Below the pieces are notes generated by a model. The model did no database searches and had not been told where the DNA came from. It saw nothing but the letters and a program-made list of their open reading frames with translations. A DNA stretch of 64,000 nucleotides, taken from Parcubacteria group bacterium. Its GTDB lineage: Bacteria; Patescibacteriota; Minisyncoccia; SW-4-49-11. Positions 7,288 through 60,616 of this stretch are shown here, piece after piece. Location of the stretch: positions 343,598-407,597 of the forward strand of contig CALRBF010000001.1 of assembly GCA_943354045.1 (NCBI GenBank), read 5' to 3'. The first letter of the stretch is position 1, and each line of letters opens with the position of its first letter. The position numbers and the translations under genes were made by a program.

Positions 7288-7845
7288 TTACTCAAATTTA
7301 TCAAAGGTAAAATATTTTAATTCCCCAAGAGGAATATTATATTTTGACTCAATTATCCATTTAGCATTATTAAATATAGCATTTTGCCAAGTATAACCAA
7401 TCAAATTAGTAGCTTTGATTAAGTCTTGTTCCGAGCCAGCTTCAATTTCAAGGTAAGGTGGTATTTGTGGCCAAGTATCAATATCAAAAGCTATATTGTC
7501 TAAGATAAAGGTATGCCTTAGTTTTTGCTGATGTCTAAAAACTTTAAACCCAATATTCTCAAAAAATAATTTTGCCTGACTGTAATTATCAACTGCAAGC
7601 TCAATCTCAGAAGCTCCATCAACACTTTGAGACCTATATTTTTTATAAGTTATTTTGACATTATCTCCAATTTTTCTTATTCTGATAAACTTATTTTCAT
7701 TTCTCCAATCACCATCCCTATCATAAATTATCATCTCATTAATCATAGACTCACCTTTATCTATAGCTCCTAAATCAAGTAAAGTCTGTATTAGGTTTTG
7801 TTTATCTATTTCTAAAAATCTACATTCTATTTCTAGGTTCAACAT
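7288..7845 (-). CDS. CYTH-domain protein (CyaB/ThTPase-like triphosphate tunnel metalloenzyme)
   Basis: N-terminal ExExRF motif (EIECRFLEI), size about 185 aa and a beta-barrel-like pattern. Confidence 0.4.
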   Translation of the reverse strand: MLNLEIECRFLEIDKQNLIQTLLDLGAIDKGESMINEMIIYDRDGDWRNENKFIRIRKIGDNVKITYKKYRSQSVDGASEIELAVDNYSQAKLFFENIGFKVFRHQQKLRHTFILDNIAFDIDTWPQIPPYLEIEAGSEQDLIKATNLIGYTWQNAIFNNAKWIIESKYNIPLGELKYFTFDKFE

Positions 7846-7932
7846 AAAGTTTATAAGTTATTTTGCATAGTACAATCTTAGCACAAATCTAATTGAGGTC
7901 AAATATTAGGGGATTAAAAGAGTTTCTAGATT

Positions 7933-8080
7933 TGTCCTCCTCCGTCCACTCCCGTATAAATACGACAGTGACCACCTCCCCCGAGGGAGGACAGGGATTT
8001 TGTCACTGCCTACCGCAGGCAAGCCTCGCTGGCGAGGGTGGCCGCAGGGCGGGTGTGGACGGGCGACTGTAAGGCCGCCC
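7933..8080. repeat. GC-rich hairpin-dense intergenic island, member of a 3-copy family
   Basis: About 60% GC in a roughly 32% GC context. Multiple short inverted repeats. The motif CTCGCTGGCGAGGGTGGCCGCAGGGCGGGTGTGGAC recurs inverted at 63566-63605. GAGGGAGGACAGGGATTTTGTC resembles 48968-48992. Confidence 0.5.
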
Positions 8081-8090
8081 CTACTAAAAG

Positions 8091-9143
8091 CTAAGCCTCT
8101 AAAACAGTATAAACTAATTCCAAAGGATAATGTTTTTCTTGAATTTGGTTTATGACAGTTTGGATTTTTGACAAAAGAGAGCTATTCTCTTTTGGTATGG
8201 TGAACAAAAGTATAAATGGATTATCTTGATTGATATACTCGCAACTAAATCCTTCAGAGCTAGAGGCTATATCTATTGCTAATTCAATATTTTGCATAAT
8301 TTGGTTAGAAGTTTGTCCACCGGCATAAATATTAAACATTGGAACTTCTAAATTTTCTTCTAATTCAGCGCCATTGAGTAGGGGGTTGAAGTTTACAATT
8401 GCTCCAAAAGCATGATGTAGATTTTTGGAATGTAATTCTTGAAAATGAAAGTGATGTGTTCGGACAGAGACTGCAGAATTTTGCTCTTGTAGTCTAGTGG
8501 TCAGAATACTAGCAAAACCAGAAGCATATTGCTCACTGGCTGAATCTAGGACTTTATCTTGATTTTGGAATTTATCTAAAATTTTACTCAAAACTTGCTT
8601 AGAACTTTTGTTAGTTAGAGTGTGAGCTACGGCTCCACATTTTGAGTGAGATGAGACTACAATTTCCTCAATAGTTGGATTATCTTCACATACAGAGATT
8701 ATATTATCTACCATTTGTAATTTTTCCTCGGCTGACATTAGGCATTCACAACCAGGAATTCCAAGTGATAAAGCATGATGAGAAGCGGTTAAATATTGTA
8801 TTCTCTCATCAATACAAGGTAACCAAATCATTTTTGGCCTTTTTACTAGACTATCTTTGAGAATTTTGTCTAAATGTAATTTGTATGTATACTCTGACTT
8901 ATATTTTGTCCCATCAAGATGCAAAAACCCTTTTACCCCTAAAACTTCAGATACAGGGTTGCTATATAACAGATTATGATAAGTTTGAGCATATTTTGCC
9001 CACTCTACACTACGATAAGAATCACAAGAGTTATCAACAGAATTTGCTGACGATATAATTTGGGCTGGCAAACGAAGAAGTGTGCCAAGAGAAGATATTC
9101 TAGACATAAATAAAAACAAATAATAGGACAAAGCCCAATACAA
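8091..9143 (-). CDS. hypothetical protein with beta-carbonic-anhydrase-like zinc-site motifs
   Basis: CIDER (CxDxR) followed about 57 aa later by HSKCGAV (HxxC), the spacing seen in beta-CA. Long N- and C-terminal extensions. The true start may be an internal Met. Confidence 0.3.
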   Translation of the reverse strand: MYWALSYYLFLFMSRISSLGTLLRLPAQIISSANSVDNSCDSYRSVEWAKYAQTYHNLLYSNPVSEVLGVKGFLHLDGTKYKSEYTYKLHLDKILKDSLVKRPKMIWLPCIDERIQYLTASHHALSLGIPGCECLMSAEEKLQMVDNIISVCEDNPTIEEIVVSSHSKCGAVAHTLTNKSSKQVLSKILDKFQNQDKVLDSASEQYASGFASILTTRLQEQNSAVSVRTHHFHFQELHSKNLHHAFGAIVNFNPLLNGAELEENLEVPMFNIYAGGQTSNQIMQNIELAIDIASSSEGFSCEYINQDNPFILLFTIPKENSSLLSKIQTVINQIQEKHYPLELVYTVLEA

Positions 9144-9261: not shown

Positions 9262-9894
9262 ATGAAGTATTTACTTATACATGGATATGGTATTGGTTTA
9301 CAATACTCTTTTTTTAAATCAGCAGAAGGAGAAAATGCTGGTTTTGGAGCTTTTGAGGATTTGATTATAGTGGGTGAGGCGAAAGTTTTTCGTTGGGAAA
9401 TAGCCCGTAAATTAAGTTTTATAGAGTCAATAAACCTGAAACTCAATATAAAACAATATGATATTGAAATGTTAAAGACGGAGAATCAAGAAGTATATGA
9501 TAGCTTACAAAAAGAATTAGAGTCAACAAAACCAGAAATAATAGTTTGTCATTCAGCAGGAAGTTCTTTGTTATTAAACTATCTTACCAATCATATATTA
9601 CCCCCTTCTGTGAAAAAAATTGTATTTATTCAAAGTAATATTTCACAGAATAGGTTGTTCCCAGAATATTTACAAGCAAAGTTACAAAAAAAAGAGATAA
9701 AATTGATAAATATGTACTGTTATTGGGATCAGGCTTTATGGTCTCTCATTTTGATTGGAAGACATATATCTATTGGATTATTCGGGAGTAAAAACACATA
9801 TGTACAAAATATATTCTTCCCCCTATACAAAAGGTTAAATTTACACACATCATCAATTAATGATATCAAAATATTTCCGTTTATTGAGGGGTGA
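9262..9894 (+). CDS. hypothetical protein, possible alpha/beta hydrolase; C-terminus encoded by a dnaE-end-derived repeat copy
   Basis: Nucleophile-elbow-like VCHSAGSS. The last about 20 codons overlap the repeat at 9833-9894. Confidence 0.3.
   Translation: MKYLLIHGYGIGLQYSFFKSAEGENAGFGAFEDLIIVGEAKVFRWEIARKLSFIESINLKLNIKQYDIEMLKTENQEVYDSLQKELESTKPEIIVCHSAGSSLLLNYLTNHILPPSVKKIVFIQSNISQNRLFPEYLQAKLQKKEIKLINMYCYWDQALWSLILIGRHISIGLFGSKNTYVQNIFFPLYKRLNLHTSSINDIKIFPFIEG
9833..9894 (+). repeat. Partial copy (right half) of the about 100-bp dnaE-3'-end-derived repeat
   Basis: TTAAATTTACACACATCATCAATTAATGATATCAAAATATTTCCGTTTATTGAGGGGTGA is near-identical to 11795-11855 and 12674-12734. Confidence 0.85.
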
Positions 9895-9952
9895 AATGCT
9901 TTACAGGAGACAATATATAGCATATAATAGATAAATATTTGTAATATAAGAT

Positions 9953-10963
9953 ATGAGGGTATATCAATTTCTAGAGAAATTATTTGGAATGGTGGGGAAT
10001 ATCAAAATTCATCCAGTAGATTTTAATTTGCCTTGGTATAGTATTTATAAGAGATATTGGGTGAGATTAGGGATGTCTTTAATGGCGGAAGTTATAATAT
10101 GGGTGTTTTTTACTACCCTACCTTTGATTATAAATTATGCGATTAAAACTCAGAACACAACTTTAGTAATATCTTTAGGAATTAGTTTTATAATGTTATC
10201 TATAATAGTTCAGACACATATGAGAAGCTATGTTTTGGCCGAGGCTGGTATTATGGGAAGTGTCTCAAATTCAGCTTATATATTCTTTGTTAAAGTTGAC
10301 CCAATTCACCACAGTACTAGAGAGTCTGGTAAAATTATTTCCAAAATTAATAGAGCCGTAAGTGCTTATGAAAACACCACTGATATCCTAACATTTGATT
10401 TACTACGATTTATAATTCAAATTAGTGTAATTCTAGTCTCATTTATATACTATGACTTCACAATAGGTATTATAGCTGCTGGTAGCTTAATAATAATGTT
10501 AACTATATCTACAATAAGCCAGATTTTTATAGCTAAAAAGGTAACCCCTAAAGATAATGATCAAGCAGATATACAATCTCAAGTTGAGGTAGAGAGTTTG
10601 CAACAAGTTGCTCTAATTCGCTCAAGCTTTGCTACTCCAGAACATATTAAGAAAATTAAAAAAACTAATATTAGAACCGGAGAAGTACAAACAACAGTTT
10701 GGATGAGTTTTATCTCAACAGCTTTTATCCCAAGAGTTTTATACGGGATATTCTTTATGGGCATAGCTTTACTTATTTTAAATCTGGTTAAGATAGGAGA
10801 CTTAGATGTAATTACAGCTATTGCTTTAATTACTATGTATATCTCAACTTATAGTATTGTATTGGCGGGTAGAGATGTTGAAAGATTAGTTTCTAATATA
10901 GAAAAAATCAAAAACCTATACACTTATATTCGAGAATATGGAGATTCTAGTTATCCAGTATAA
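9953..10963 (+). CDS. ABC exporter transmembrane domain protein (6-TM permease half)
   Basis: Polytopic membrane protein immediately upstream of a stand-alone ABC ATPase, with the pattern of a type I exporter TMD. Confidence 0.5.
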   Translation: MRVYQFLEKLFGMVGNIKIHPVDFNLPWYSIYKRYWVRLGMSLMAEVIIWVFFTTLPLIINYAIKTQNTTLVISLGISFIMLSIIVQTHMRSYVLAEAGIMGSVSNSAYIFFVKVDPIHHSTRESGKIISKINRAVSAYENTTDILTFDLLRFIIQISVILVSFIYYDFTIGIIAAGSLIIMLTISTISQIFIAKKVTPKDNDQADIQSQVEVESLQQVALIRSSFATPEHIKKIKKTNIRTGEVQTTVWMSFISTAFIPRVLYGIFFMGIALLILNLVKIGDLDVITAIALITMYISTYSIVLAGRDVERLVSNIEKIKNLYTYIREYGDSSYPV

Positions 10964-10971
10964 TAAATCGT

Positions 10972-11748
10972 ATGCATACAGTTAAGTTAAAAAAATTATA
11001 TTATTCCTATGAGAAGACAAAAGTGTTTCAAAATAATACTCTTGTTTTAGAAGTGTCTCAAAATCAGAAAAATAAATTATATGGAATTATTGGACCCTCT
11101 GGAACAGGTAAAACTACATTATTATCTATATTAGGAGGACAATTAAAACCACAAAAAGGATCGGTATATATTGATGATATTAATATATATGAAGTTGGCG
11201 ATAAGGAGCGGCGAAATATCATAGCGGTACAAATGCAAACAGCTACCGCCCTGAGAGGGACTTTACGCGAGAATTTAGTTTTTGGAATTCAAGAAGATGA
11301 GGTCTTGAATAAAGATGAGTATTTGATTGATGTCTTGAGGCGAGTGGGCTTATGGAGCCTTTTTGAGAATAAAGATGGTCTTGATACTCTAATCGGAGAG
11401 GGTGGTGTTAATTTGTCTGGAGGGCAGAGACAAAGATTAAATTTTGCAGGATTATATTTGAGAGCAAAACATTATAAACCAAGTTTAATCCTAATTGATG
11501 AGCCAACTTCTTCCCTAGATGAAATCAGTGAGCGGGCAATTACTCAAATGATAGATGAATTATCCCAAAAATCAGTCACCTTTGTAGTAGCTCATAGACT
11601 CAAAACTCTAGACCAAGCTGTAGGTATATTAGACACTTCTCTAATCCCAACTTACCCAGAACTCAAATTCTATAACAAAGATGAGTTGATGACAGTCTCC
11701 CAATATTACAGGGACCTCCAAGCCGGCAAAGCTCAGTTGGAGGAATAG
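10972..11748 (+). CDS. ABC transporter ATP-binding protein
   Basis: Walker A GPSGTGKTT, signature LSGGQRQR, Walker B LILIDEPTSSLD. Confidence 0.85.
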   Translation: MHTVKLKKLYYSYEKTKVFQNNTLVLEVSQNQKNKLYGIIGPSGTGKTTLLSILGGQLKPQKGSVYIDDINIYEVGDKERRNIIAVQMQTATALRGTLRENLVFGIQEDEVLNKDEYLIDVLRRVGLWSLFENKDGLDTLIGEGGVNLSGGQRQRLNFAGLYLRAKHYKPSLILIDEPTSSLDEISERAITQMIDELSQKSVTFVVAHRLKTLDQAVGILDTSLIPTYPELKFYNKDELMTVSQYYRDLQAGKAQLEE

Positions 11749-11756
11749 GGTTTTTA

Positions 11757-11855
11757 CTCTGGATTATTGAGAATATATCTCCTCTCTATAAAGTTTTTAA
11801 TTTACACATATCATCAATTAATGATATCAAAATATTTCCGTTTATTGAGGGGTGA
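11757..11855 (+). repeat. Full copy of the about 100-bp dnaE-3'-end-derived repeat
   Basis: Begins CTCTGGATTATTGAGAATATAT, which is the dnaE terminal coding sequence. On the minus strand it still reads ...RRYILNNPE-stop. Confidence 0.85.
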
Positions 11856-11879
11856 TATTCCAGTATAAGAAATCAGTTT

Positions 11880-12596
11880 TTAAATTATATTTACATAAAA
11901 ATATTCCCAAAATGCTTCTAATATACTCCATATACCAAAGCCGAAAAACATCAGCATTACTGAGTTTGCAATAAAGACTAAAAACAGGACTAAAAATATT
12001 ATAATAAGGGGTTTATTGTATAATCTATTATGTCCAACAACTGGATAACTGATATTGTTGTCTAAATCGGAGGTCTTTACAAGGCTAGTATCAAGAGAGG
12101 GTTTTTTGTTACGATGATACAAAATAAATATAGGAACTATAAGAAATGACCATATAAGGAATAATATTATATGTACACCTATAAATATAATAGGCAAGAA
12201 ATTCCAATCATTATTTCCATCAGGAGATAATGTCATAATAAAGCTTAATATTGTAACTATAAAGAGGGCTAAAATACTATCTCTATATCGAGACCAAGAT
12301 ATTGTCTTATAAAACGTCAAAAACCAATAAAGAAACCAAACTAAAGGCAATGTTGCTGCGGCCATAAAGAATATATAATACAGAAAACCTACGTCAAAGT
12401 TAGAGGTAGCACTTATAAACACTAGTGATAAGTATAATATCAGTATAAGGGATATCACCACGATATAATTTTTAGTATACCTATGTATTTTATTTTGATT
12501 AGGAGTAGTATTTGGTGCTTTGCTATAAATATCTTTAATTTCTTGCAAATTACTATTAACTGAGGGTTGTTCCTGATTTAAATTTATTTCATCCAT
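11880..12596 (-). CDS. hypothetical polytopic membrane protein (cassette cargo)
   Basis: Several TM helices. The N-terminus (MDEINLNQEQ...) is paralogous to 12752-13684. Confidence 0.4.
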   Translation of the reverse strand: MDEINLNQEQPSVNSNLQEIKDIYSKAPNTTPNQNKIHRYTKNYIVVISLILILYLSLVFISATSNFDVGFLYYIFFMAAATLPLVWFLYWFLTFYKTISWSRYRDSILALFIVTILSFIMTLSPDGNNDWNFLPIIFIGVHIILFLIWSFLIVPIFILYHRNKKPSLDTSLVKTSDLDNNISYPVVGHNRLYNKPLIIIFLVLFLVFIANSVMLMFFGFGIWSILEAFWEYFYVNII

Positions 12597-12636
12597 ATGT
12601 TTATATTAAATATTACTACTTAAAGAATAACATTAT

Positions 12637-12734
12637 TCTTGATTATTGAGAATATATCTCCTCTCTATAAAGTTTTTAATTTACACACATCATCAATTAA
12701 TGATATCAAAATATTTCCGTTTATTGAGGGGTGA
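12637..12734 (+). repeat. Full copy of the about 100-bp dnaE-3'-end-derived repeat
   Basis: Near-identical to 11757-11855. The left end is a decayed dnaE terminus (minus strand reads LNNQE-stop). Confidence 0.85.
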
Positions 12735-12751
12735 AATCTATTTGTAGGAGA

Positions 12752-13684
12752 TTATTTTCTCCATAGAAAATAAAACAAAAGAGCATCTATTATTGTTATT
12801 ATTAAAGCTACCATCAATACTGCTGAAACGGTAAGATCACCAGCTACTATACCTCCAAGAGATAAAAAGGCAAATCCTAAAAATCCTAATACCAAAAATA
12901 CAGAAATTATAATTCTCAATGTTTTATTAGAGTAACTTTGCTCTTTTATATAGGTAGAGGTTTTAGTATTTGCTGAATCTGTTTGATAATATTCTTGTAT
13001 ACTTTGTATTGGGTCTGTTTTTTTAAAATTATCACTATTTACCATTGATTCAGATTGTTTTGGCTCAAGTTGTATTGATTCATTTTTAATAATATTAAGG
13101 GGTTGAGTTGAAAGGGTTTCCTCAGTAGATCGAGTATTAGTGTCTGTAGATGGAGAGTTTGTATCAGATGTATTAGATATGATGTCTTGATATGAATTAT
13201 TTTTTTCAGATTTTGAAACATCACTATTTTGAGCTTGTTTATTATTTAATAATTGCATTTCAGCATATATTTTGTATGCAGACAATAATATAATAATAAC
13301 CCCAATTATTTTGGGTAATATATTCCAATCACCAAGCAACGATAGAGCTATAATTATACCAGTGACTGAAAACATAGGAATAAAGGCAACTATATTAATT
13401 TTATTAGAAAACGTTGCTATTAATAGAGAAAATATCACACTTGCAAAATATAGAAAAATAAATAAATATATAGGAAATAAAAACATTAATAATATACCAC
13501 TAACTCCATTTTGAAAGGTATTGTTCAGGGTAACATCTAATAAAAACAAAGAGTATAAAGAATATAAAACTAGTAATATAAAGTTTATAAGTTTATTAGA
13601 ATTTTTTTGAGTTAAACTTTCAGTAGAATTTTGATTAGATTTATATTTAGATTGAATTTCTTGTAGAGGGGTAGGATTATCCAT
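12752..13684 (-). CDS. hypothetical polytopic membrane protein with S/T/N-rich linker (cassette cargo)
   Basis: TM helices, low-complexity linker, N-terminus MDNPTPLQEIQ similar to 11880-12596. Confidence 0.4.
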   Translation of the reverse strand: MDNPTPLQEIQSKYKSNQNSTESLTQKNSNKLINFILLVLYSLYSLFLLDVTLNNTFQNGVSGILLMFLFPIYLFIFLYFASVIFSLLIATFSNKINIVAFIPMFSVTGIIIALSLLGDWNILPKIIGVIIILLSAYKIYAEMQLLNNKQAQNSDVSKSEKNNSYQDIISNTSDTNSPSTDTNTRSTEETLSTQPLNIIKNESIQLEPKQSESMVNSDNFKKTDPIQSIQEYYQTDSANTKTSTYIKEQSYSNKTLRIIISVFLVLGFLGFAFLSLGGIVAGDLTVSAVLMVALIITIIDALLFYFLWRK

Positions 13685-13729
13685 AATTTTATCTTAATAT
13701 TATATTTACAGTATATTATCATAATAACA

Positions 13730-16700
13730 CTACTCTGGATTATTGAGAATATATTTGATTCTAGATATAAGTTCTTCGGAATATTGTACTGCAAAATTAG
13801 TGGATTTTATTTGTACATTTGGGCTATTATAATTAGCAACTAGATATACCGGACAATTGCCTCTAGGCTCTCGATTTAATATATCTCTTACTTTTTCCAA
13901 GGAATCCTTAGAGGTATGTGGGGGGATAATAATATTAATACCTACAATTTCCTGTCCTTCAGGAGTTGTGGGGATAGTATTTGGTATACTCTCATCAGGC
14001 TCGGGTATACTAGCTCCAATATCCTCAACCGAATTACCATTATCTTTCTTTTCTTTTGTGGTAATCCAAGTATTTATATCAGTATCAGAGAGAGATTTGA
14101 CTTCTGATACAATAAACTGAGAACTTCCATCTTTATCTTGGCGCTTTCCTTTGAGAGCAAAACCTTTACCAGGGACAATAGCATCAGATATAGGTCCATA
14201 AATACTTGGGAATATAATAGCCTCAATACTATCATTATAATCTTCTAGTGTTACAAATGCCATTTTAGAGCCACTTTTAGTCATAATAATTTTATTCTCT
14301 TTGATGATACCAGCTAAAATCATCCCCGTTTTTCTTTTAGATTCTTTGAGCTCTTTTATACTTGGAAATGCTAAATCTTCTATAATTGTTTTATACTCAT
14401 CGATTGGATGAGCAGAAATCCATAAGCCAAGATAATGATTTTCTAATTCTAAAATTTGATTTAATTGTTCTGTTGGAGAAATCGGGCTATCTACTAAATC
14501 TAATACAGGTGCAGTAGGGGCGGTATTTCCAAATAAAGAATTGGTTGGGACTATGGTATTAATATCAGAAAGTTTTTTGATATATAAACTAATAGTATCG
14601 ATATTTGTGATAAGTATATGTCTTTTCTCTAATTCATCTAAAGCTCCCCCTTTGATTAAGGCTTCTAAATTTTTCTTATTCAATTCTTTTGCTGGTATTC
14701 TTTTGAAAAAATCTTCTAAAGAGCTAAATGGCCCATTATCTATTCGCTCTTGCTCAATATATTCTGCTAAATGGGAACTCATATTTTTGATACTTGCAAG
14801 ACCATAGAAAATTGTAGAATCACTGCCAGAAAATTGAGCTTTGCTATTATTTACATGAGGAGCTTGAATCTTGAGACCTAATTGTCGAGATTCTGTAATA
14901 TCAATAGCGATACGCGTCATATCCTTGGCATCACTATTGAGGAGAGCTACCATAAATTGTAGAGGATAATGTGCTTTGAGATAGGCTGTCTGATAGGCGA
15001 TAAAGGCATAACAAGCGGCATGCGATTTATTGAATCCATAATCTCCAAAAGGTTCAATTAATTCCCATAATTTTTCCCCAACTTGTCTCTCTATACCTTG
15101 TTTAACCGTACCTTCAATAATATTCGTTTTCTGCTCATCCATTAACTCTTTAATCTTTTTTCCCACAGCTTTACGCAAAGTATCGGCTTCTGGTAGCGAA
15201 AATCCCGCCACCGCTTGTGAGGCTTGCATCAGCTGCTCTTGGTAAATCATAATTCCATAAGTTGGTTTCAAAATAGGCTCCAGATTAGGGTGTAAATAAG
15301 AAACCTCCTCCTTACCATGTTTACGAGCAATATAGGTAGGAATAAGCTCCATAGGACCGGGTCTATACAGGGAAACCATAGCAATAAGATCATTAAAGTC
15401 TGATGGTTTTAATCCAATAAGAGCTTTTTTCATTCCCTGAGATTCGAATTGGAATACCCCAGTTGTTTGTCCTTTTTGGAATAATTTATAGGTTAACGCA
15501 TCTTTGATAGGAAGATTATTGATATCAATAATAGTTCCTGTTTGAGATTGTATTAACTCAAGAGTAGACTCAATAGTTGAGAGATTAGATAATCCCAAAA
15601 AATCCATTTTAAGAAGTCCTAAATCTTCAATCGCATGCATTTCATATTGAGTAGTAATAGATGTTTTTCCTCCAGATTCAGAAATTTGTAGGGGAGTATA
15701 AGAGGTGAGTTTTTTGGGAGATATCACCACAGCACAAGCATGGGTGGAAGTATGCCTCACCGACCCTTCTAATTCTTGAGCGGCATCAATAAGAGTTGTT
15801 ACTTTTTCTTCTTGCTCATAGCGAGCTTTGAGTTCTCGAGAATTGGCTATAGATTTAGCAATAGTTTTTTGTTCGATAAGCTTTGCAATAGAATCACATA
15901 GCCCATAAGAATACCCGAGAGCCCTCCCTGTATCTCGAATCGCGGCTTTGGCTGCCATTGTCCCAAAAGTACAAATTTGAGCCACATGATCTTGCCCATA
16001 TTTTTGAGCCACATAGTTAAGTACTAATTCTCTCTTATTATCCTGAAAGTCAATATCGATATCGGGCATAGATACACGGGCAGGATTCAAAAATCGCTCA
16101 AACAAAAGCTGATATTCTAGAGGATCAAGATCGGTTATAGCAAGTAAATAAGCAACCAAACTTCCAGCCGCAGAACCTCTACCCGGCCCTACCAATATGC
16201 TATTACTTTTAGCCCAATTAATAAAATCAGATACAATGAGAAAATAGTCAATATATCCAGCAGTTTTGATAACATCAAACTCATATTCGAGGCGTTCTCG
16301 TATAGGTTTTTGATCTTTGCCTGGATAGCGTTTTACTATTCCATCTTCACAAAGATACCGAAGATAATTCTCATTTGATAATTTTTCTCCTGACTCAAGT
16401 GCAGGTACTTCAAAGGCAGGAAGTTGAATTTGATACAGAGGAATTTCTACATTACAAGCATTAGCAATAGTTCTGGTATTATGAATAGCCTCTTCTGGAA
16501 TATTAAGTTCTTGAGCTAAAGTATATATTTCCTCGGCTGATTTGAGAGAATAATCTTCATAGGCAAAGCTAATACGATCAGGATTTTGAATAGTTGTTTT
16601 ATACTTAATGGCAAGCATAATATCGTGAGCTGTTTTTTGCTCAGGAGTGAGATACATACTTTGCGCTGTTAGAACAAGAGGAATTTGAGCAGATACCCCG

Positions 16701-17248
16701 AGCTCAGTTAATAGGATATTTGCTTTTAATTGGTCAGGGGTATTGATAAGTGGTAAAACTTCAAAATAAAGGTTTTCTTTAAAAATATCTTTATAAGATT
16801 TTACCCAAGCTGAAACTTTGGAAGGGGTATGAATAAGATAAGAGGCGATTTCCCCTGTATAATTACCAGTAAGACAAATAATATCATCAGAATATTGGGA
16901 TAATTCCTCAAAAGAAACATATTTATGAGTATTAAGTCGAACCAGAGAGGCAAGCTCAATCAAATTCATATATCCAGCATAGGATTTAGCAAGTAGGGTT
17001 AAGGAATAGCTTTTATTATCTCCTGCATCAAAGCTTCCAACAGATAGACATATTCCTAATATTGGTTTTATATTAGCTTTTTTTGCTTTTTCATAAAACT
17101 CAATAGCCCCAAACATATTATCCTTATCGGCAAGGGTTATGGTATCAAACTCTAATAATTGAGCTCTTGCAATAATAGCATCAATGGAACCAATGGCCTC
17201 GAGTATGCTGTAATGAGAGCGAGTATTAAGATGGACAAATTCTTGCAT
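13730..17248 (-). CDS. dnaE: DNA polymerase III alpha subunit
   Basis: PHP domain N-terminus (HLNTRSHYSILEAIGSI), polymerase core motifs, OB fold, 1172 aa. The 3' end (13733-13780) is the source sequence of the repeat family. Confidence 0.92.
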   Translation of the reverse strand: MQEFVHLNTRSHYSILEAIGSIDAIIARAQLLEFDTITLADKDNMFGAIEFYEKAKKANIKPILGICLSVGSFDAGDNKSYSLTLLAKSYAGYMNLIELASLVRLNTHKYVSFEELSQYSDDIICLTGNYTGEIASYLIHTPSKVSAWVKSYKDIFKENLYFEVLPLINTPDQLKANILLTELGVSAQIPLVLTAQSMYLTPEQKTAHDIMLAIKYKTTIQNPDRISFAYEDYSLKSAEEIYTLAQELNIPEEAIHNTRTIANACNVEIPLYQIQLPAFEVPALESGEKLSNENYLRYLCEDGIVKRYPGKDQKPIRERLEYEFDVIKTAGYIDYFLIVSDFINWAKSNSILVGPGRGSAAGSLVAYLLAITDLDPLEYQLLFERFLNPARVSMPDIDIDFQDNKRELVLNYVAQKYGQDHVAQICTFGTMAAKAAIRDTGRALGYSYGLCDSIAKLIEQKTIAKSIANSRELKARYEQEEKVTTLIDAAQELEGSVRHTSTHACAVVISPKKLTSYTPLQISESGGKTSITTQYEMHAIEDLGLLKMDFLGLSNLSTIESTLELIQSQTGTIIDINNLPIKDALTYKLFQKGQTTGVFQFESQGMKKALIGLKPSDFNDLIAMVSLYRPGPMELIPTYIARKHGKEEVSYLHPNLEPILKPTYGIMIYQEQLMQASQAVAGFSLPEADTLRKAVGKKIKELMDEQKTNIIEGTVKQGIERQVGEKLWELIEPFGDYGFNKSHAACYAFIAYQTAYLKAHYPLQFMVALLNSDAKDMTRIAIDITESRQLGLKIQAPHVNNSKAQFSGSDSTIFYGLASIKNMSSHLAEYIEQERIDNGPFSSLEDFFKRIPAKELNKKNLEALIKGGALDELEKRHILITNIDTISLYIKKLSDINTIVPTNSLFGNTAPTAPVLDLVDSPISPTEQLNQILELENHYLGLWISAHPIDEYKTIIEDLAFPSIKELKESKRKTGMILAGIIKENKIIMTKSGSKMAFVTLEDYNDSIEAIIFPSIYGPISDAIVPGKGFALKGKRQDKDGSSQFIVSEVKSLSDTDINTWITTKEKKDNGNSVEDIGASIPEPDESIPNTIPTTPEGQEIVGINIIIPPHTSKDSLEKVRDILNREPRGNCPVYLVANYNSPNVQIKSTNFAVQYSEELISRIKYILNNPE

Positions 17249-17378: not shown

Positions 17379-19301
17379 ATGATCAAAGCTAAAAGAGTAC
17401 AAAAAGGGTTCACCCTACTCGAGATATTATTAGTAATAGCAGCAATAGGGATATTAGCGGCAATAATATTGGTGGCAATAAACCCCAATAGACAATTAGC
17501 ACAAGTAAGGAATGCAGAGAGGAGATCAGAAATAAATACAATATACAAAGCCCTAGAACAATATCTAATAGATACAAGGAGTTATCCCACAGGGATAACA
17601 ACATCAATACAAGATATATGTATAAATGGAAACACAACAAATTGTGTAAATTTAGGAGTATTAGTCCCCGACTATATAGCAGCAATACCAATAGATCCAG
17701 GAGGAGGGGCTTATAGAGTGGTAATAAATACAAGTAATAATAGAGTATCCGTATATGCCAGTAATGCAGAACTAGGACAGGGTATAGGTATCAATGACCG
17801 ACCTTGGACCCCTGCAAACATCAGTACGGCGCTTTGGTTGGATGCAGCGGATGCCAGCACGATCACGCTCAATGGCAGCACTGTTAGCCAGTGGAACGAC
17901 AAAAGCGGGAATGCGAAACACGCTACGCAAGCAACGGCTGCTAATCAGCCTGCATACACGGCCAGTGGTTTGAACGGTAAGCCAGTGCTGACTTGGGACG
18001 GAGGTAACGACGTGCTGAACACTGCATCAGCACTCAATCACCCTGTAAGCATCTACTCTGTTGCTCAACTTAGCGGTGCCACGAATTCAACAAGGGGGAT
18101 TGTTGGGTCAGGAAGTCAATCTTATTCCCTTGGCACTCTTAGCTCATCACCTGCTGCGACCTCCGCATATGCACTTTGGAATCCGTTCCTCAACGGCGGC
18201 GCGTACATAAACAACACGGCAACAACAGACCCTGTTGTTCTTGGTAGCACTACCGTTTCCAACGTCGAAAACACTTGGAATACTTATGTGAACGGCAGCA
18301 ATGCTGGGCAGGCAATTTGGGATACTGGCACGCCCGCGGCGCCTGGCTTTATTAGGATCGGCTACAGCGGCGTCGGCAGTGAATATTGGCTGGGCACTAT
18401 TGCTGAAGTAGTTATCACCTCGACAACCCTTTCCACCACCGACCGCCAAAAACTTGAAGGCTACCTCGCCTGGAAATGGGGCTTAACAAATAATTTACCA
18501 GCCAATCACCCATATAAATGGAATGGGACTGAATTTGGAGGAGTAAATATTACAGATACAGATGCCCAAACTTATATTGCAGCGGTAGAAACTGCAGATG
18601 GGCAGTCTTTAGAGAATAATACAAGATTAGCTATTCAAAACTTTATAGTTGGAGCAAAAACAGATGGTATATGGGATGCTATAAAATCATCTAATATACT
18701 AGCAGGAGCCAGAACTTTGACTGGAGCATTAGTACCCTTGAAGGGTACGGCACCGACAAACTTCAACTTTGTAAGTGGAGATTATAACAGGAAGACGGGA
18801 CTGGTGGGGAATGGGAGCACGAAGTATCTAGATAGCAATCGGAATAACAATGCTGATCCGCAAAACAGCTTTCACGTATCTGCGCAGATTTCATCGGCAC
18901 ATTCATTGTTGACGAATAGCACGTATATTGGTGCTGGAAATAGTGTTCCTGGACTTACTCATTTGGGAGCAGCCCGTCTAAGTGGCCTAGACACCTTGTT
19001 TTTTAGAAATCGCAGCACTACCGACATCCAAAGTGGTTCTGCTGGCACCACAGGTTTTATTGGAATGTCTAGACCAAATTCAACATCCATCAACTATCGT
19101 TTTAACTCTACGACCGCAACTGGAGCACTTACATCAGAAACTCCTTTTAACGGTAATTTGTTGATTTTTGGTCGAGTCGTTGGGCAACCATATATTGCTG
19201 GCCGTATCGCCTTCTACAGCATCGGGGAATCCCTAAACCTCGCCCTGCTGGATGCCAGGGTCACCCAACTTATGACAGATTTAGGTAATGCAATTCCATA
19301 A
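17379..19301 (+). CDS. Type IV pilin-like protein with two LamG/concanavalin-A-like domains
   Basis: Prepilin leader MIKAKRVQKG|FTLLEILLVIAAIGILAAI. The C-terminal region carries LamG-like motifs (LWLDAADASTI..SQWNDKSGN, EGYLAWKWGL). GC-rich segments at about 17800-18480 and 18720-19290. Confidence 0.7.
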   Translation: MIKAKRVQKGFTLLEILLVIAAIGILAAIILVAINPNRQLAQVRNAERRSEINTIYKALEQYLIDTRSYPTGITTSIQDICINGNTTNCVNLGVLVPDYIAAIPIDPGGGAYRVVINTSNNRVSVYASNAELGQGIGINDRPWTPANISTALWLDAADASTITLNGSTVSQWNDKSGNAKHATQATAANQPAYTASGLNGKPVLTWDGGNDVLNTASALNHPVSIYSVAQLSGATNSTRGIVGSGSQSYSLGTLSSSPAATSAYALWNPFLNGGAYINNTATTDPVVLGSTTVSNVENTWNTYVNGSNAGQAIWDTGTPAAPGFIRIGYSGVGSEYWLGTIAEVVITSTTLSTTDRQKLEGYLAWKWGLTNNLPANHPYKWNGTEFGGVNITDTDAQTYIAAVETADGQSLENNTRLAIQNFIVGAKTDGIWDAIKSSNILAGARTLTGALVPLKGTAPTNFNFVSGDYNRKTGLVGNGSTKYLDSNRNNNADPQNSFHVSAQISSAHSLLTNSTYIGAGNSVPGLTHLGAARLSGLDTLFFRNRSTTDIQSGSAGTTGFIGMSRPNSTSINYRFNSTTATGALTSETPFNGNLLIFGRVVGQPYIAGRIAFYSIGESLNLALLDARVTQLMTDLGNAIP

Positions 19302-19391
19302 TATGAAATGTTTAATTTTTGCTACAACAAAGTAATATTATAAGAGGGAAATTTTTAGAACAATGTCAGTGGGGGTATTGCCTCTATTAAA

Positions 19392-19434
19392 TGGAGGGAC
19401 TTAAAGCCTCCGCTACAAACATAAACATAATTCA
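19392..19434 (+). repeat. 43-bp direct repeat, left copy, flanking the RhuM cassette
   Basis: TGGAGGGACTTAAAGCCTCCGCTACAAACATAAACATAATTCA matches 20589-20631 at 42 of 43 positions. Confidence 0.85.
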
Positions 19435-19495
19435 AAATTGACAATTCACCATTATTCCCTCCCATGCTATAATACAATAAATATTTATCAATTAT

Positions 19496-20521
19496 ATGAA
19501 TAAAAAAATCCAAAAATCGGATCAAGAGCTACGCCATACACAACAAAATCAGATTGTGATTTATACAGGAGAAGATGGGCAATCTCGTCTAGAGGTAAAA
19601 TTTCAAGGAGAAACAGTTTGGCTAACACAGGCTCAGTTAGTAGACTTATTTCAATCCAGTAAAGCTAATATAAGCGAGCATATCAAAAATATATTTTTAG
19701 AAGGTGAATTAGATAAAAATTCAGTTGTTCGGAATTTCCGAACAACTGCCACAGATGGAAAAAATTATGAAGTAGAACACTATAATCTTGACCTCATAAT
19801 ATCACTCGGATACAGAGTTAAATCCAAAATAGCAACACAATTCCGTATTTGGGCAACTCAACATCTCAAAGAATATATCACCAAAGGCTTCACAATAGAT
19901 TCAGAAAAATTAAAAAATCTAGGAGGAGGAAATTATTGGAAAGAACTTCTAGAACAAATTAGAGATATAAGAAGTAGTGAAAAAGTACTTTATCGTCAAG
20001 TATTAGACCTATATGCAACAGCAATAGATTATAATCCAAACTCACAAGAATCATTAGAATTCTTTAAAACCATACAAAACAAATTACATTTTGCAGCACA
20101 TGGGCACACAGCCGCTGAGGTCATATACCTAAGAGTAGATTCAGACAAGCCATTTGTAGGACTACAAAACTTCAAAGGTAAACAACCAACCCAAGCAGAA
20201 GCAATGATAGCCAAAAACTTTTTATCCTTAACTGAATTAAAAATACTAAATAATTTAGTATCAGCCTACTTTGATTTTGCCGAGATAAATGCTATAGAAC
20301 AAAAGTTAATGAAAATGCAAGATTATATAATAGAATTAGACAATATTTTGCAATCTGCAGGTAGAAAACAATTATTCAATGTAGGTAAAATTAGTAATCA
20401 GGAAGCAATAGATAAAGCAACTACAGAATATAAAAAATATAAAGCCAAAACACTCAGCGAGGTAGAAAAAGCCTACTTAAAATCTATTAAAACCCTACAA
20501 AAAGATATAAAGAAAAAATAA
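19496..20521 (+). CDS. RhuM-family (virulence protein RhuM-like) DNA-binding protein
   Basis: The N-terminus IVIYTGEDGQSRLEVKFQGETVWLTQAQLVDLF...SEHIKNIF...RNFRTTATDGKNYEVEHYNLDLIISLGYRVKS..QFRIWATQ is a strong RhuM signature. Confidence 0.8.
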   Translation: MNKKIQKSDQELRHTQQNQIVIYTGEDGQSRLEVKFQGETVWLTQAQLVDLFQSSKANISEHIKNIFLEGELDKNSVVRNFRTTATDGKNYEVEHYNLDLIISLGYRVKSKIATQFRIWATQHLKEYITKGFTIDSEKLKNLGGGNYWKELLEQIRDIRSSEKVLYRQVLDLYATAIDYNPNSQESLEFFKTIQNKLHFAAHGHTAAEVIYLRVDSDKPFVGLQNFKGKQPTQAEAMIAKNFLSLTELKILNNLVSAYFDFAEINAIEQKLMKMQDYIIELDNILQSAGRKQLFNVGKISNQEAIDKATTEYKKYKAKTLSEVEKAYLKSIKTLQKDIKKK

Positions 20522-58382: not shown

Positions 58383-59106
58383 AAGAGGAGACAAAAACCT
58401 CCTCTTTTATATTTTGGCTCCGGAAGCTGGACGACGTTCGAACCTTTGAGTGGGGGATATAGGTACTTACCTCACCCCTTTCTCACTATAGTTTTGGAGA
58501 AATGAAAAAGCCCCCGCAGTGGCGGGGGTGTGTGCTGAGTAATTGCTACTCAGGGGGTTTTCAAAGTTTCCCCAAGTTTTTGGCCTACTTGATGTAATGC
58601 GACAGCTGGCCACAGTGCAGTTGTACCTAGACCTATCACTAGTTGGGATCTAGATAGCTCTCCTTTCGGGAATTCTGGGCCAAAGGCACCTATACCGACG
58701 GAAAAACCGACCCCCAGTAGTGAGTATGACACTGAGTATGACACCAATACGATCCATGGAAATAGATCGATGGACTTTGCTGGTGCTTCTGGAGCAGTGG
58801 GGGTTGGGCTCTCAGTAGTCATTGGGAATAACGAACATTAGCAAGAATAACATACCACATTTTCCCAATTTTGTCAATATCAAACAACATTATATTCTAA
58901 CTTATACTTTACTTATATATAAACCAAAAAACAGCTAAAATAAGCCGTTTAAAGGGAGCGGGCTCCGCGAGTAGGATTGCAAACCAGTCGTGAATGAGAT
59001 TCACTCCTTGGAACCACTCGGTTCCAATACCTCCACCACGGGAAACTCCCGTTTCCCGACCCCTTCCCCAGGTTCTCATCCTACTCTCTCAAAAGACAAG
59101 AAATAT
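58383..59106 (-). repeat. Tandem unit A (724 bp): terminator + tRNA-3'-end-like element E + small 2-TM ORF + promoter + pseudo-3'-exon fragment
   Basis: Near-identical in organisation and sequence to unit B (59107-59889). The terminator AAAGAGGAGACAAAAA(C/T)CTCC..TTTT is identical to the one following the real tRNA at 59890-59916. Confidence 0.75.
58550..58822 (-). CDS. small hypothetical 2-TM membrane protein (unit A)
   Basis: 90 aa. N-terminus MTTESPTPTAPEAPAKSIDLFPWIVL and C-terminus ALHQVGQKLGETLKTP are identical to the unit B paralog. Own terminator hairpins downstream. Confidence 0.4.
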   Translation of the reverse strand: MTTESPTPTAPEAPAKSIDLFPWIVLVSYSVSYSLLGVGFSVGIGAFGPEFPKGELSRSQLVIGLGTTALWPAVALHQVGQKLGETLKTP

Positions 59107-59889
59107 AAAAGAGGAGACAAAAATCTCCCCTTTTATATTTTGGCTCCGGAAGCTGGACGATGTTCGAACCTTTGAGTGGGGGGTATAAGTACCTACCTCA
59201 CCATCTCCTCACTATAGGTTGGGAGAAATAAAAAGCCCCCGCAGTGGCGGGGGTGTGTGCTGAGTAATTGCTGCTCAGGGGGTTTTCAAAGTTTCCCCAA
59301 GTTTTTGGCCTACTTGATGTAATGCAACAAATGGCCACGCAGCGGTGATACCTGTTATCACTACTGTCTGGGGCAGTGTGAGTAGTTCTTGCGGGTATCT
59401 TGAACCTAAGATACCCTTGGTAAAACCTATTCCCAGCATTGTGTATGATGCCAATACGATCCATGGAAATAGATCGATGGACTTTGCTGGTGCTTCTGGA
59501 GCAGTGGGGGTTGGGCTCTCAGTAGTCATTGGGAATAACGAACATTAGCAAGAATAACATACCACATTTTCCCAATTTTGTCAATACCAAACAACATTAT
59601 ATTCTAACTTATACTTTACTTATATATAAACCAAAAAACAGCTAAAATAAGCTGTTTAAAGGGAGTGGTCTCCGCGAGTAGGATTGCAAACCAGTCGTGA
59701 ATGGGATTTACTCCTTGGAACCACTCGGTTCCAATACCTCCACCACGGGAAACTACCATTCCCATCAATCCCCCCACACCCCGTCTCGGACACCTACGGT
59801 TTCCGACACTCGGAGTAAACTCCTCGCTGCCTTCCTGTCCAGGGGGACTGATACCCCTTCCCCAGGTTCTCATCCTATACTCTCTCAAA
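59107..59889 (-). repeat. Tandem unit B (783 bp), paralog of unit A
   Basis: See unit A. Confidence 0.75.
59275..59529 (-). CDS. small hypothetical 2-TM membrane protein (unit B)
   Basis: 84 aa, paralog of 58550-58822. Confidence 0.4.
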   Translation of the reverse strand: MTTESPTPTAPEAPAKSIDLFPWIVLASYTMLGIGFTKGILGSRYPQELLTLPQTVVITGITAAWPFVALHQVGQKLGETLKTP

Positions 59890-59974: not shown

Positions 59975-60530
59975 TTACACCTTATCCAAGTATTTCTACA
60001 AGGCGTGGACTATATCATCATCCATCATAGTGATGGAGCGAGGCGCTTCCACTGTATTGCTACAATGTACTCCCTTGCGGGATAGTCTCTGAACCTTCCT
60101 GAGATTTCTCAGGCTTGGCTGCTGATTTCCATAATGTTTCCATCTTAGGGTTCCAGCAATTCACCTCGTGTTTCAACTTCTGTTACCAGAAGAAGCTGCA
60201 ACTAGACCCGCATGAATTTCTTTGTGGCAGTTAGAGCATACCAATACACATTTATCGAGTTCATCTTTCATTTTATCCCAAGATCTTGTAATTCCTTTAT
60301 AGGATATTCCAAAGTCTTTTTGATTGGGATCAGTGTGATGAAATTCTAATGCATCTGTACAGGTATTGTATCCACATAAGGAGCATTTATCTCCCAAGTA
60401 AGATACAGCTTTTTTCTTGAGAAGTTTTCTTCTCTGAGAAACTGCATTTTTAAGATATTCAGCACGATCAGAATATTTTCTTTTGCCAGGCATACTAATA
60501 TAATTAGGTGTACGATGACTCAAGAAGGTA
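59975..60530 (-). mobile_element. Group I intron (about 556 nt) carrying an HNH homing endonuclease ORF
   Basis: Conserved R element GGTTCAGAGACTA (60083-60095, minus) and S element GATATAGTCC (60007-60016, minus) form P7. A candidate IGS GCAGCC is complementary to the exon end GGCUGU with a U-G wobble. Confidence 0.7.
60173..60493 (-). CDS. HNH homing endonuclease (intron-encoded)
   Basis: CSLCGY..EFHHTDPN..CVLVCSNCHKEIH is an HNH/zinc-finger motif. The start is chosen at MPGKRK; the ORF-track start at 60535 is the tRNA anticodon GTG itself. Confidence 0.7.
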   Translation of the reverse strand: MPGKRKYSDRAEYLKNAVSQRRKLLKKKAVSYLGDKCSLCGYNTCTDALEFHHTDPNQKDFGISYKGITRSWDKMKDELDKCVLVCSNCHKEIHAGLVAASSGNRS

Positions 60531-60616
60531 TTCACAGCCGACTGCTCTACCGCTGAGCTATCGCGGAATTAGATTTGAAAGGTACTTGTATATTGTACCG
60601 AATAAGAGAGATATAG

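Follow-up and report, generated by a model that had tools for sequence, protein, structure and literature searches.

Organisation of the locus

A window of 64 kb from a low-GC Patescibacteria genome (contig CALRBF010000001.1; the window is the whole stretch of DNA that was analysed, and all negative results given for it hold for these 64 kb) contains, between two convergent genes, an islet in which three cassettes are separated by two copies of a repeat of about 100 nucleotides (nt), here called the junction repeat, or J. The islet is anchored on the left by hyd, a gene for a small hydrolase, and on the right by dnaE, and its cassettes encode a split ABC exporter, with separate genes for the transmembrane domain (TMD) and the nucleotide-binding domain (NBD), and two further membrane proteins (Table 1). 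The open reading frames (ORFs) of the cargo lie where the original prediction, made from the letters of the window, had placed them.

The closest public relatives of this genome are freshwater 'Candidatus Paceibacteria' metagenome-assembled genomes, with a DnaE identity of 97-98%. Relatives that carry J were obtained by exact-protein look-ups in ENA and Logan assemblies. Loci of relatives, with or without J, are referred to below by number (L001 and so on). The DnaE of the window has a complete set of Pfam domains, namely PHP, DNA_pol3_alpha, finger, HHH_6 and OB. The TGA codon at the end of hyd raised the possibility of genetic code 25, in which TGA is read as glycine; this was rejected because the homologues of hyd also terminate at the same place, and dnaE is open over 1172 codons in table 11.

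For the hydrolase, 33 homologues were matched, and in the 23 of them that were aligned the C-terminal motif NIFFPLYKxxNLHTSSIND is kept, down to 35% identity, with N183, P187, L188, Y189, N193, L194, H195, S197 and D201 invariant. The best folds for its AlphaFold model (pLDDT 86) are those of LipA and YdeN of Bacillus subtilis, both minimal alpha/beta hydrolases. Judging by the order of secondary-structure elements, Ser98, Asp156 and His195 would occupy the canonical positions of a catalytic triad, with His195 predicted to follow the last strand, the place of the catalytic histidine in that fold. A look-up of the exact hyd protein of the window returned no record.

Table 1. Features of the islet and of its two anchor genes, in window coordinates
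Feature	Coordinates	Strand	Basis or remark
hyd, 210-aa serine-hydrolase-like minimal alpha/beta-hydrolase, left anchor	9262-9894	+	homologues, fold
Copy A, genuine hyd 3' coding end (NIFFPLYKRLNLHTSSINDIKIFPFIEG, then stop)	9808-9894	+	same ending in every relative, including the empty-site L024
Cassette 1, split ABC exporter: promoter-like site (9900-9928), TMD gene and NBD gene	9895-11753	+	
TMD gene (ABC transmembrane subunit)	9953-10963	+	
NBD gene (ABC ATPase)	10972-11748	+	
Junction repeat J_B (copy B)	11754-11855	+	dnaE-tip copy 11754-11778 (TTA+CTCTGGATTATTGAGAATATAT), invariant core 11775-11798, hyd-tail copy through TGA
Cassette 2, 238-aa polytopic membrane protein with 5' leader (gene 11880-12596)	11856-12632	-	
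Junction repeat J_C (copy C)	12633-12734	+	dnaE-tip copy (TTATTCTTG allele) 12633-12657, same core, hyd-tail copy
Cassette 3, 310-aa 'M' family membrane protein (gene 12752-13684)	12735-13729	-	absent in L001
Functional dnaE 3' tip (..RIKYILNNPE, stop)	13730-13775	-	first 25 nt the source of the left part of J
dnaE, DNA polymerase III alpha, 1172 aa, right anchor	13730-17248	-	Pfam

Composition and origin of the junction repeat

The two internal copies of the repeat, B and C, are 97% identical over 102 nt, and their right half of 48 nt recurs at the end of hyd, so that it is found at 9847-9894, 11808-11855 and 12687-12734 with 0-1 mismatches. This is the distribution that had been predicted, and the repeat occurs nowhere else in the window, the 48-nt half having no further match in the 64 kb (shuffle expectation 0). 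At the opposite end of J, a 22-nt sequence, CTCTGGATTATTGAGAATATAT, is present at 11757, at 12636 (with 2 mismatches) and at the real end of dnaE (13733-13754), where the chance expectation is likewise 0. No order of decay of the kind proposed for the copies is evident, as copy B matches the present dnaE tip at 22/22 positions and copy C, which lies closer to dnaE, at 20/22.

Judged by these alignments, each internal J is a chimera, in which about 25 nt come from the dnaE tip and about 78 nt from the 3' end of the hyd coding sequence. The part demonstrably derived from dnaE amounts to some 22-25 nt, that is, the stop codon and seven codons (YILNNPE), rather than to the 45 bp or so first proposed. 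Beyond GAGAATATAT, the dnaE frame of J agrees at 2/8 residues only, and the next 24 nt or so reads as hydrolase coding sequence (..SPLYKVF.., to be compared with FPLYKxx in the family). The two parts join at A(A/G)AATATAT, a microhomology of 7-8 nt that is present in both parent genes. Copy A has no dnaE-derived part, and its homology to B and C begins at AATATAT (9808). The view of the repeat as a decayed dnaE terminus is thus correct for the tip, which is a real copy, but not for the remainder of J, which is fused sequence from the 3' end of hyd, nor for copy A.

The plus-strand translation of both internal copies is ..ENISPLYKVFNLH(I/T)SSINDIKIFPFIEG followed by a stop, and the hydrolase itself ends in ..QNIFFPLYKRLNLHTSSINDIKIFPFIEG and a stop. 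A profile of the hyd family matches this frame at positions 182-209 (E 1e-11 for B and 1e-12 for C), with the other five frames giving E values above 0.03, and direct reading of the Pro, Leu and Tyr codons of J beside those of the resident hyd reveals third-position differences only. The right three quarters of J is therefore a copy of the hydrolase 3' end and not the reverse, a direction of copying that follows from the invariance of the hyd C-terminus in homologues as distant as those described above. The opposite direction, in which hyd had captured its C-terminus from a copy of the repeat, formed part of the original prediction and was rejected on account of the same family conservation. 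A 100-bp antisense overlap between hyd and dnaE in an ancestor was also considered as the source of J, and was rejected since the empty site has stops that do not overlap and lie 7 nt apart.

A core of 24 nt across the junction, ATATCTCCTCTCTATAAAGTTTTT, is identical in about 30 copies of J from 19 sources, and J is therefore likely to have had a single origin. The right part of J includes a near-palindrome, ATCATCAATTAATGAT, that had been put forward as a possible recombination or operator site; it does exist, with 7/8 pairs, but it codes for the conserved TSSIND of the hydrolase.

States of the site in relatives

Direct comparison with relatives confirms that the cassettes are discrete units, separately present or absent beside dnaE, as the site is found empty or with one, two or three of them. 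In L024, the dnaE of which is 96.8% identical at the nt level, the site is empty, and the hyd TGA lies 7 nt from the dnaE stop. The ABC pair is alone at the site in L023, L102 and L103, with the stop of the ATPase gene abutting that of dnaE. In four other relatives (L031, L112, L114 and L115) the sole occupant is a gene for a 177/178-aa membrane protein, X, the stop of which abuts the dnaE stop in L031 and L115. In the case of L112, a gap of about 215 nt between X and dnaE holds a pseudogene remnant of the M family; the remnant (L112 4390-4604) is truncated, reads antisense as ..GGILAGDLT.. from the conserved C-terminal hairpin of that family, and records a former cassette that is decaying in another lineage. 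In most of the single-cassette states checked, the cassette fits stop to stop or within a few nt, and the M genes retain a leader of about 45 nt beside dnaE.

Longer arrangements are also found. The order of the window, hyd-ABC-J-238-J-310-dnaE, recurs in more than eight independent contigs. A 131-kb scaffold, L001, has hyd-ABC-J-238-dnaE, without the 310-aa gene and one J, and its 238 cassette adjoins dnaE. The order X-J-ABC is found in L007 and L018. In relatives that are more distant or have no hyd (L030, L106-108 and L116-120) the same cargo genes adjoin dnaE without J, L112 is a further lineage with such cargo but no J at the site, and orthologues of the 310-aa type adjoin dnaE without any J in L030, L106 and L116-L120. 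Where hyd is missing, the site is bounded by dnaE and a gene for a 350-aa protein, and holds M and ABC in L106 and M alone in L116-120.

Across strains, the same flanking pair encloses different cassettes or none, which is the pattern of a flexible islet, and the breakpoints of the cassettes among relatives fall exactly at the repeats. Each unit of the array, composed of a hyd tail, a cassette and a dnaE tip, is, on these comparisons, equivalent to a single-cassette allele that stands alone in some strain. On that equivalence, the array is a head-to-tail concatenation of alternative islet alleles.

Cargo of the cassettes

The NBD protein matches ABC_tran (E 8e-22), and its closest NCBIfam NBDs are of the exporter types CydC, CydD and LssB. 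The TMD protein matches phrog_2392, 'ABC transporter', over residues 31-322 (E 3.9e-12) and Atm1 weakly, and does not match Pfam ABC_membrane. The promoter-like site upstream of the pair, TTTACA-17-TATAAT, scores 11/12. The 238-aa, 310-aa and X proteins have no match in Pfam, NCBIfam, PADLOC or PHROGs, and the profile of the M family gave nothing usable with PDB sequences. The N-termini of the two membrane proteins of the window, described as paralogous in the original prediction, are similar only marginally (30% over 137 aa, E 0.035).

The 310-aa M protein consists of a variable N-terminal transmembrane (TM) domain, a linker rich in Q, N and S, and a conserved C-terminal two-helix hairpin. 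The M family as a whole (P0034-P0052) is modular, with interchangeable N-terminal TM domains and a nearly invariant C-terminal hairpin. For instance, P0037 combines the linker and C-terminal half of the 310-aa protein with a TM domain at its N-terminus that is not related to that of the 310-aa protein. In most members, the motif LQEIQSEYKSNQN of the N-terminus is found again in mid-protein. The X protein (L007 19-549; L018 4982-5581, minus strand; L031 13520-14053, minus strand) ends in KDLKAGK(A/V)QLEE, which resembles the tail of the ATPase, DLQAGKAQLEE; given this shared tail, the X cassette seems to be fused onto the last 40 nt or so of the ATPase gene. The X orthologue in L030 has no ATPase-like tail.

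The exporter and the membrane proteins had been suggested to form a module for peptide export and immunity. No peptide gene is present, the intergenic spaces of 58, 131, 155 and 45 nt being occupied by J or by leaders, and among bacteriocin traits the cassettes have neither a peptidase domain nor, for the membrane proteins, a match to an immunity family. With no room for a peptide gene, the suggestion is unsupported. The hypervariability of the cargo, seen in the membrane proteins and in an exporter whose TMD has two alleles with an identity of only about 72%, suggests that the cassettes may encode envelope proteins under diversifying selection.

Allelic arms of the repeat and mosaic flanks

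The left arm of J occurs as TTATTCTGG, TTACTCTGG or TTATTCTTG, and the same polymorphisms are found in the real dnaE tips of other strains. Similarly, the right-arm variants ACATAC, GATACA and TTCCCG are those of the hyd ends of other strains; one right arm of L018, for instance, has ACATAC..GATACA..TTCCCG and matches the hyd of L023 and L102. Each of these variants, left or right, is linked to the cassette that adjoins its arm. The left arm of J_C (TTATTCTTG) is the tip allele of the real dnaE of L001, where dnaE lies beside the 238 gene. The expectation that every cassette carries, at the end nearer to dnaE, a tip variant particular to it is borne out at dnaE itself, where the window differs from L001 by 7 mismatches in the last 46 nt (13730-13775) and then by none until 14854, a distance of more than 1 kb.

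Mosaicism, which together with this sharp breakpoint characterises the site as a hotspot of recombination, is also observed on a larger scale. The dnaE of the window is 74% identical at the nt level to that of L027, L028 and L106, whereas the hyd-side genes there are 87-97% identical (about 90% for the left flank of L027 and L028). The pattern is reversed in L024 and L031, with 97% identity in dnaE but 68-70% in the left flank. This opposite divergence of dnaE and left flank indicates that the islet marks a boundary between segments of different history. Within the first cassette, the TMD core is 72% identical to that of L001 as against 97% to those of L028 and L104. Two classes of allele, with an nt identity of only about 72%, exist for the core (10077-10963). 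Around it, the window and L001 have 99-100% identity in the first 124 nt of the gene and throughout the ATPase gene. L028 and L104, which share the TMD allele of the window, are otherwise more distant genomes.

A probable mechanism for growth of the array

It seems reasonably probable that the islet recombines through host homologous recombination on a portable homology, J, without a dedicated mobile element. The simplest state is a convergent hyd and dnaE, 7 nt apart, in a population of Paceibacteria of the Candidate Phyla Radiation (CPR), the strains of which hold different single cassettes at the site, be it the split ABC exporter, X or an M-type protein. In a single founding event in one lineage, two copies of the islet would have been joined head to tail, by tandem duplication or by circularisation, at the A(A/G)AATATAT microhomology, giving a J made of 25 nt of dnaE tip and 78 nt of hyd tail. 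Exchange between one J and another could then shuffle, duplicate or delete cassettes. In addition, the hyd arm of J could pair with the real hyd end, and the dnaE arm with the real dnaE end, on incoming DNA, and such pairing would add the incoming cassette rather than replace the resident one. The outcome would be an array that stockpiles alternative alleles in the form (hyd-tail, cassette, dnaE-tip) x n. No recombinase encoded by an element would be required, only the recombination of the host, presumably dependent on RecA and probably acting on DNA taken up from relatives.

Several observations weigh against this mechanism. The dnaE arm of J, at about 17-25 nt, is short for RecA-mediated exchange, and the occurrence of at least two left-arm alleles on the same core means that crossovers or gene conversion would have taken place in this short arm more than once. 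The boundaries of the cassettes are very precise and lie at stop codons, which is what a site-specific mechanism would give as well, and J is predicted to be able to form an imperfect hairpin. The core differs from every known hyd allele at about 9/21 aligned nt and has one codon missing, no donor allele encoding ..SPLYKVF.. was found among the 33 homologues, and J may be old and maintained. The missing codon and the third-position differences indicate one founding join with a diverged hyd allele. In the five-cassette contig L018, two ABC units agree at 100% of 2009 nt; this contig may represent an assembly loop through J, and its cassette order is not relied on here. Finally, the screening for a recombinase and for further copies of J reached 64 kb of the genome.

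The array is unlikely to have arisen within one lineage by tandem duplication alone, the copies then diverging and losing different genes without any import of alleles. Such a course accounts well for J, which looks exactly like a tandem-duplication junction in being a chimeric join of two segment ends at a microhomology, and the weak similarity of 238 and 310 and the ATPase C-terminal tail of X could be read in the same way. However, ABC, 238/310 and X are not copies of one another, 238 and 310 being the only pair with any similarity, and from this it follows that the contents of the units must have been exchanged after the founding event. The units also coincide with single-cassette alleles of other strains, with the same precise boundaries, and differential deletion would not yield four cargos that all start right after the hyd TGA. 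Moreover, the single-nucleotide polymorphisms (SNPs) of the arms match foreign alleles, and the mosaic flanks already suggest incongruent histories of cassettes and flanking genes. It is hardly credible that J and the arrays are artefacts of assembly, in which strain variants were made into chimeras by metagenome assemblers through their shared hyd and dnaE ends. Many contigs do break inside J, and the ABC unit of L018 is perfectly duplicated, but no genuine allele of hyd or dnaE contains the 24-nt core, which could not be invented by an assembler. The core is identical in the 19 sources, which include ENA scaffolds as well as Logan contigs and differ in sample and assembler, it lies within 131-kb scaffolds, and a member of the 310-aa protein cluster is recorded on a 425-kb contig.

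A site-specific cassette system, with J as an att- or attC-like site and a recombinase elsewhere in the genome, so that cassettes would be excised in circular form and inserted where dnaE and hyd meet, is improbable, even though it would explain the precise boundaries and the identical core, the difference in cassette content between nearly identical strains, and the linkage of arm SNPs to neighbouring cassettes, which places the exchanges in an invariant middle of about 50 nt. The locus does have the direct repeats copying a target 3' end (11754-11778 and 12633-12657) and the empty site (L024) of an integrase island, and J contains an imperfect inverted repeat (CCTCTC-TATAAA and TTTAT-GAGGGG) with the near-palindrome inside it. 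Such a system has no need, however, of a J built from the ends of the flanking genes, 78 nt of it being hyd sequence with conserved codons. The 50/59 window ORFs of at least 120 aa that were screened against Pfam yielded no integrase, transposase or resolvase, and each cassette holds either the ABC pair or one membrane-protein gene, with no integrase gene at any end. The screened ORFs thus lend no support to an element directed at dnaE by a recombinase of its own. The integron core GTTRRRY/RYYYAAC is absent from J on both strands, the only GTT triplets being in GTTTTTA and GTTTATT. Neither the right half of J nor its specific junction was matched (0 hits) when GTDB representative genomes, viral contigs and JGI metagenome contigs were scanned for the exact patterns, and other lineages vary the same islet without J. 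Quite improbable is the more specific proposal that J is the recombination site of a new integron-like system of cassette capture in CPR bacteria, the site having evolved from fused convergent gene ends and the recombinase lying elsewhere in the genome. The hairpin also bears on the very unlikely case that J is primarily a functional non-coding element (a bidirectional terminator, an insulator or a small RNA) and recombination is incidental. Copy B is predicted to fold at -28.7 kcal/mol, partly by means of a cassette-specific flank, with moderate stability on both strands (z -2.5 and -2.1); as for position, the neighbours of J_B are convergent and those of J_C tandem genes. The structure of copy C is no better than that of shuffled sequence (z -0.4), which speaks against a site-specific system as well as against a non-coding element. 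Against the latter, moreover, a U-tract is missing from the hairpin, J received no call of a terminator-like site, counts in promoter and terminator scans were not above those of shuffled sequence, no Rfam family was found in the region at the gathering threshold or at E <=0.1, and single-cassette relatives do without J.

Other features of the window

A second variable islet (17379-20521) is present on the other side of dnaE. It encodes a protein of 640 aa that has the N-terminal methylation motif of type IV pilins, in sequence with a GC content of up to 54% as compared with about 30% around it, and a member of the RhuM family (E 7e-98). In L106, RhuM is present only as a fragment of 108 aa, and in L102, L104, L112 and L115 a glucosamine-6-P isomerase-like gene follows directly after dnaE. 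To the left of hyd, a gene for a CYTH-domain protein (7288-7845) is present in the window, L002 and L004 and absent from L001, L003, L016 and L017, a further presence/absence polymorphism a few kb from the array. Between this gene and the gene for the 350-aa protein, a patch at 7800-8200 has a GC content of about 40-42%, compared with about 30%, and has neither a convincing ORF nor a match in Rfam at E <=0.1.

Further away, the ORF at 50456-51157 matches Pfam Ald_deCOase (long-chain fatty aldehyde decarbonylase) over its full length (E 2e-114). This family is typical of cyanobacteria, and its presence in a Patescibacteria genome is therefore unexpected. On the minus strand, a match to Rfam RF00028 over the full length of the model (73 bits) reveals a group I intron at 59986-60224. 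A 120-aa ORF on the same strand (60173-60535) overlaps or adjoins it, and has Cys/His motifs that recall an HNH endonuclease. Neither rRNA nor tRNA was detected in the 64 kb. The region 58550-59530, which is relatively GC-rich and ORF-poor, has two paralogous ORFs for small membrane proteins (90 and 84 aa) that both begin with MTTESPTPTAPEAPAKSIDLFPWIV and are about 725 nt apart, and looks like a duplicated module.

Significance and relation to known systems

If the islet grows by host recombination on J, the locus would show a replacement-type islet turning into an additive cassette array without mobile-element machinery, with the intermediates preserved in natural populations. This would be relevant to the turnover of accessory genes in the ultra-small genomes of Patescibacteria, in which few mobile elements, to our knowledge, seem to have been described; nor do we know of an earlier description of such an islet in this group. 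Diversifying selection on the envelope would bear on interactions with phages or hosts. The locus also calls for caution, as direct repeats of a gene 3' end around cassettes resemble the att sites of integrases, yet can come from plain recombination. Were the integron-like proposal true after all, tiny genomes could stockpile and reshuffle alternative genes for envelope proteins by a capture system of their own.

Among known systems, integrons, including clusters of attC sites lacking integron integrases (CALINs) and sedentary chromosomal integrons, share with the islet cassettes of one or two genes that are split by a highly similar repeat of about 100 bp with an imperfect inverted repeat, and a number and order of cassettes that vary between close strains. 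They differ in that no IntI is present here among the screened ORFs, that J is without the R''/R' core (RYYYAAC ... GTTRRRY) and derives from the coding ends of the flanking genes, and that the cassettes lie in both orientations, at least one of them with its own promoter-like site. Islands of tyrosine integrases at the 3' ends of tRNA, tmRNA or protein genes are alike in their direct repeats of the target end, in the reconstitution of the gene end and in the empty site of relatives. In the present case, however, there is no integrase, the repeat runs on into 78 nt of the coding end of the opposite neighbour, and the units are of 0.8-1.9 kb and carry no element functions.

The arrays of orphan modules downstream of rhs and cdiA, composed of displaced toxin tips and immunity genes, provide another parallel, as their units keep a short copy of the adjacent gene end that allows swapping by homologous recombination. 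In the islet, however, the dnaE-tip copies are of 7 codons only and encode no alternative DnaE C-termini, no toxin or immunity signature was found in the cassettes, and the cassettes are independent genes. In Streptococcus pneumoniae, transformation-triggered merodiploidy produces tandem duplications bordered by a short repeat, through alternative pairing of, or unequal crossing-over with, incoming DNA, and these duplications are a substrate for divergence (PMC3784515). The pneumococcal duplications are of 100-900 kb and are bordered by pre-existing fragments of insertion sequences (PMC3784515), whereas the units of the islet are of about 1-2 kb. The repeat that borders them is, moreover, itself a novel junction.

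The concept of minimal mobile elements (MMEs) reportedly goes back to Saunders & Snyder 2002, and classical MMEs have one alternative per site, in a replacement mode. In the MMEs of Neisseria, a conserved gene pair flanks alternative whole-gene cassettes without mobility genes, exchange is ascribed to the uptake of DNA and its homologous recombination with the conserved flanks, and the cargo is skewed to surface or variable functions, which makes them a precedent for the islet (PMC1797815; PMC3787668). The difference is that here the alternatives pile up in tandem, which they can do because J, as the fused junction of the two flanks, supplies internal homology.

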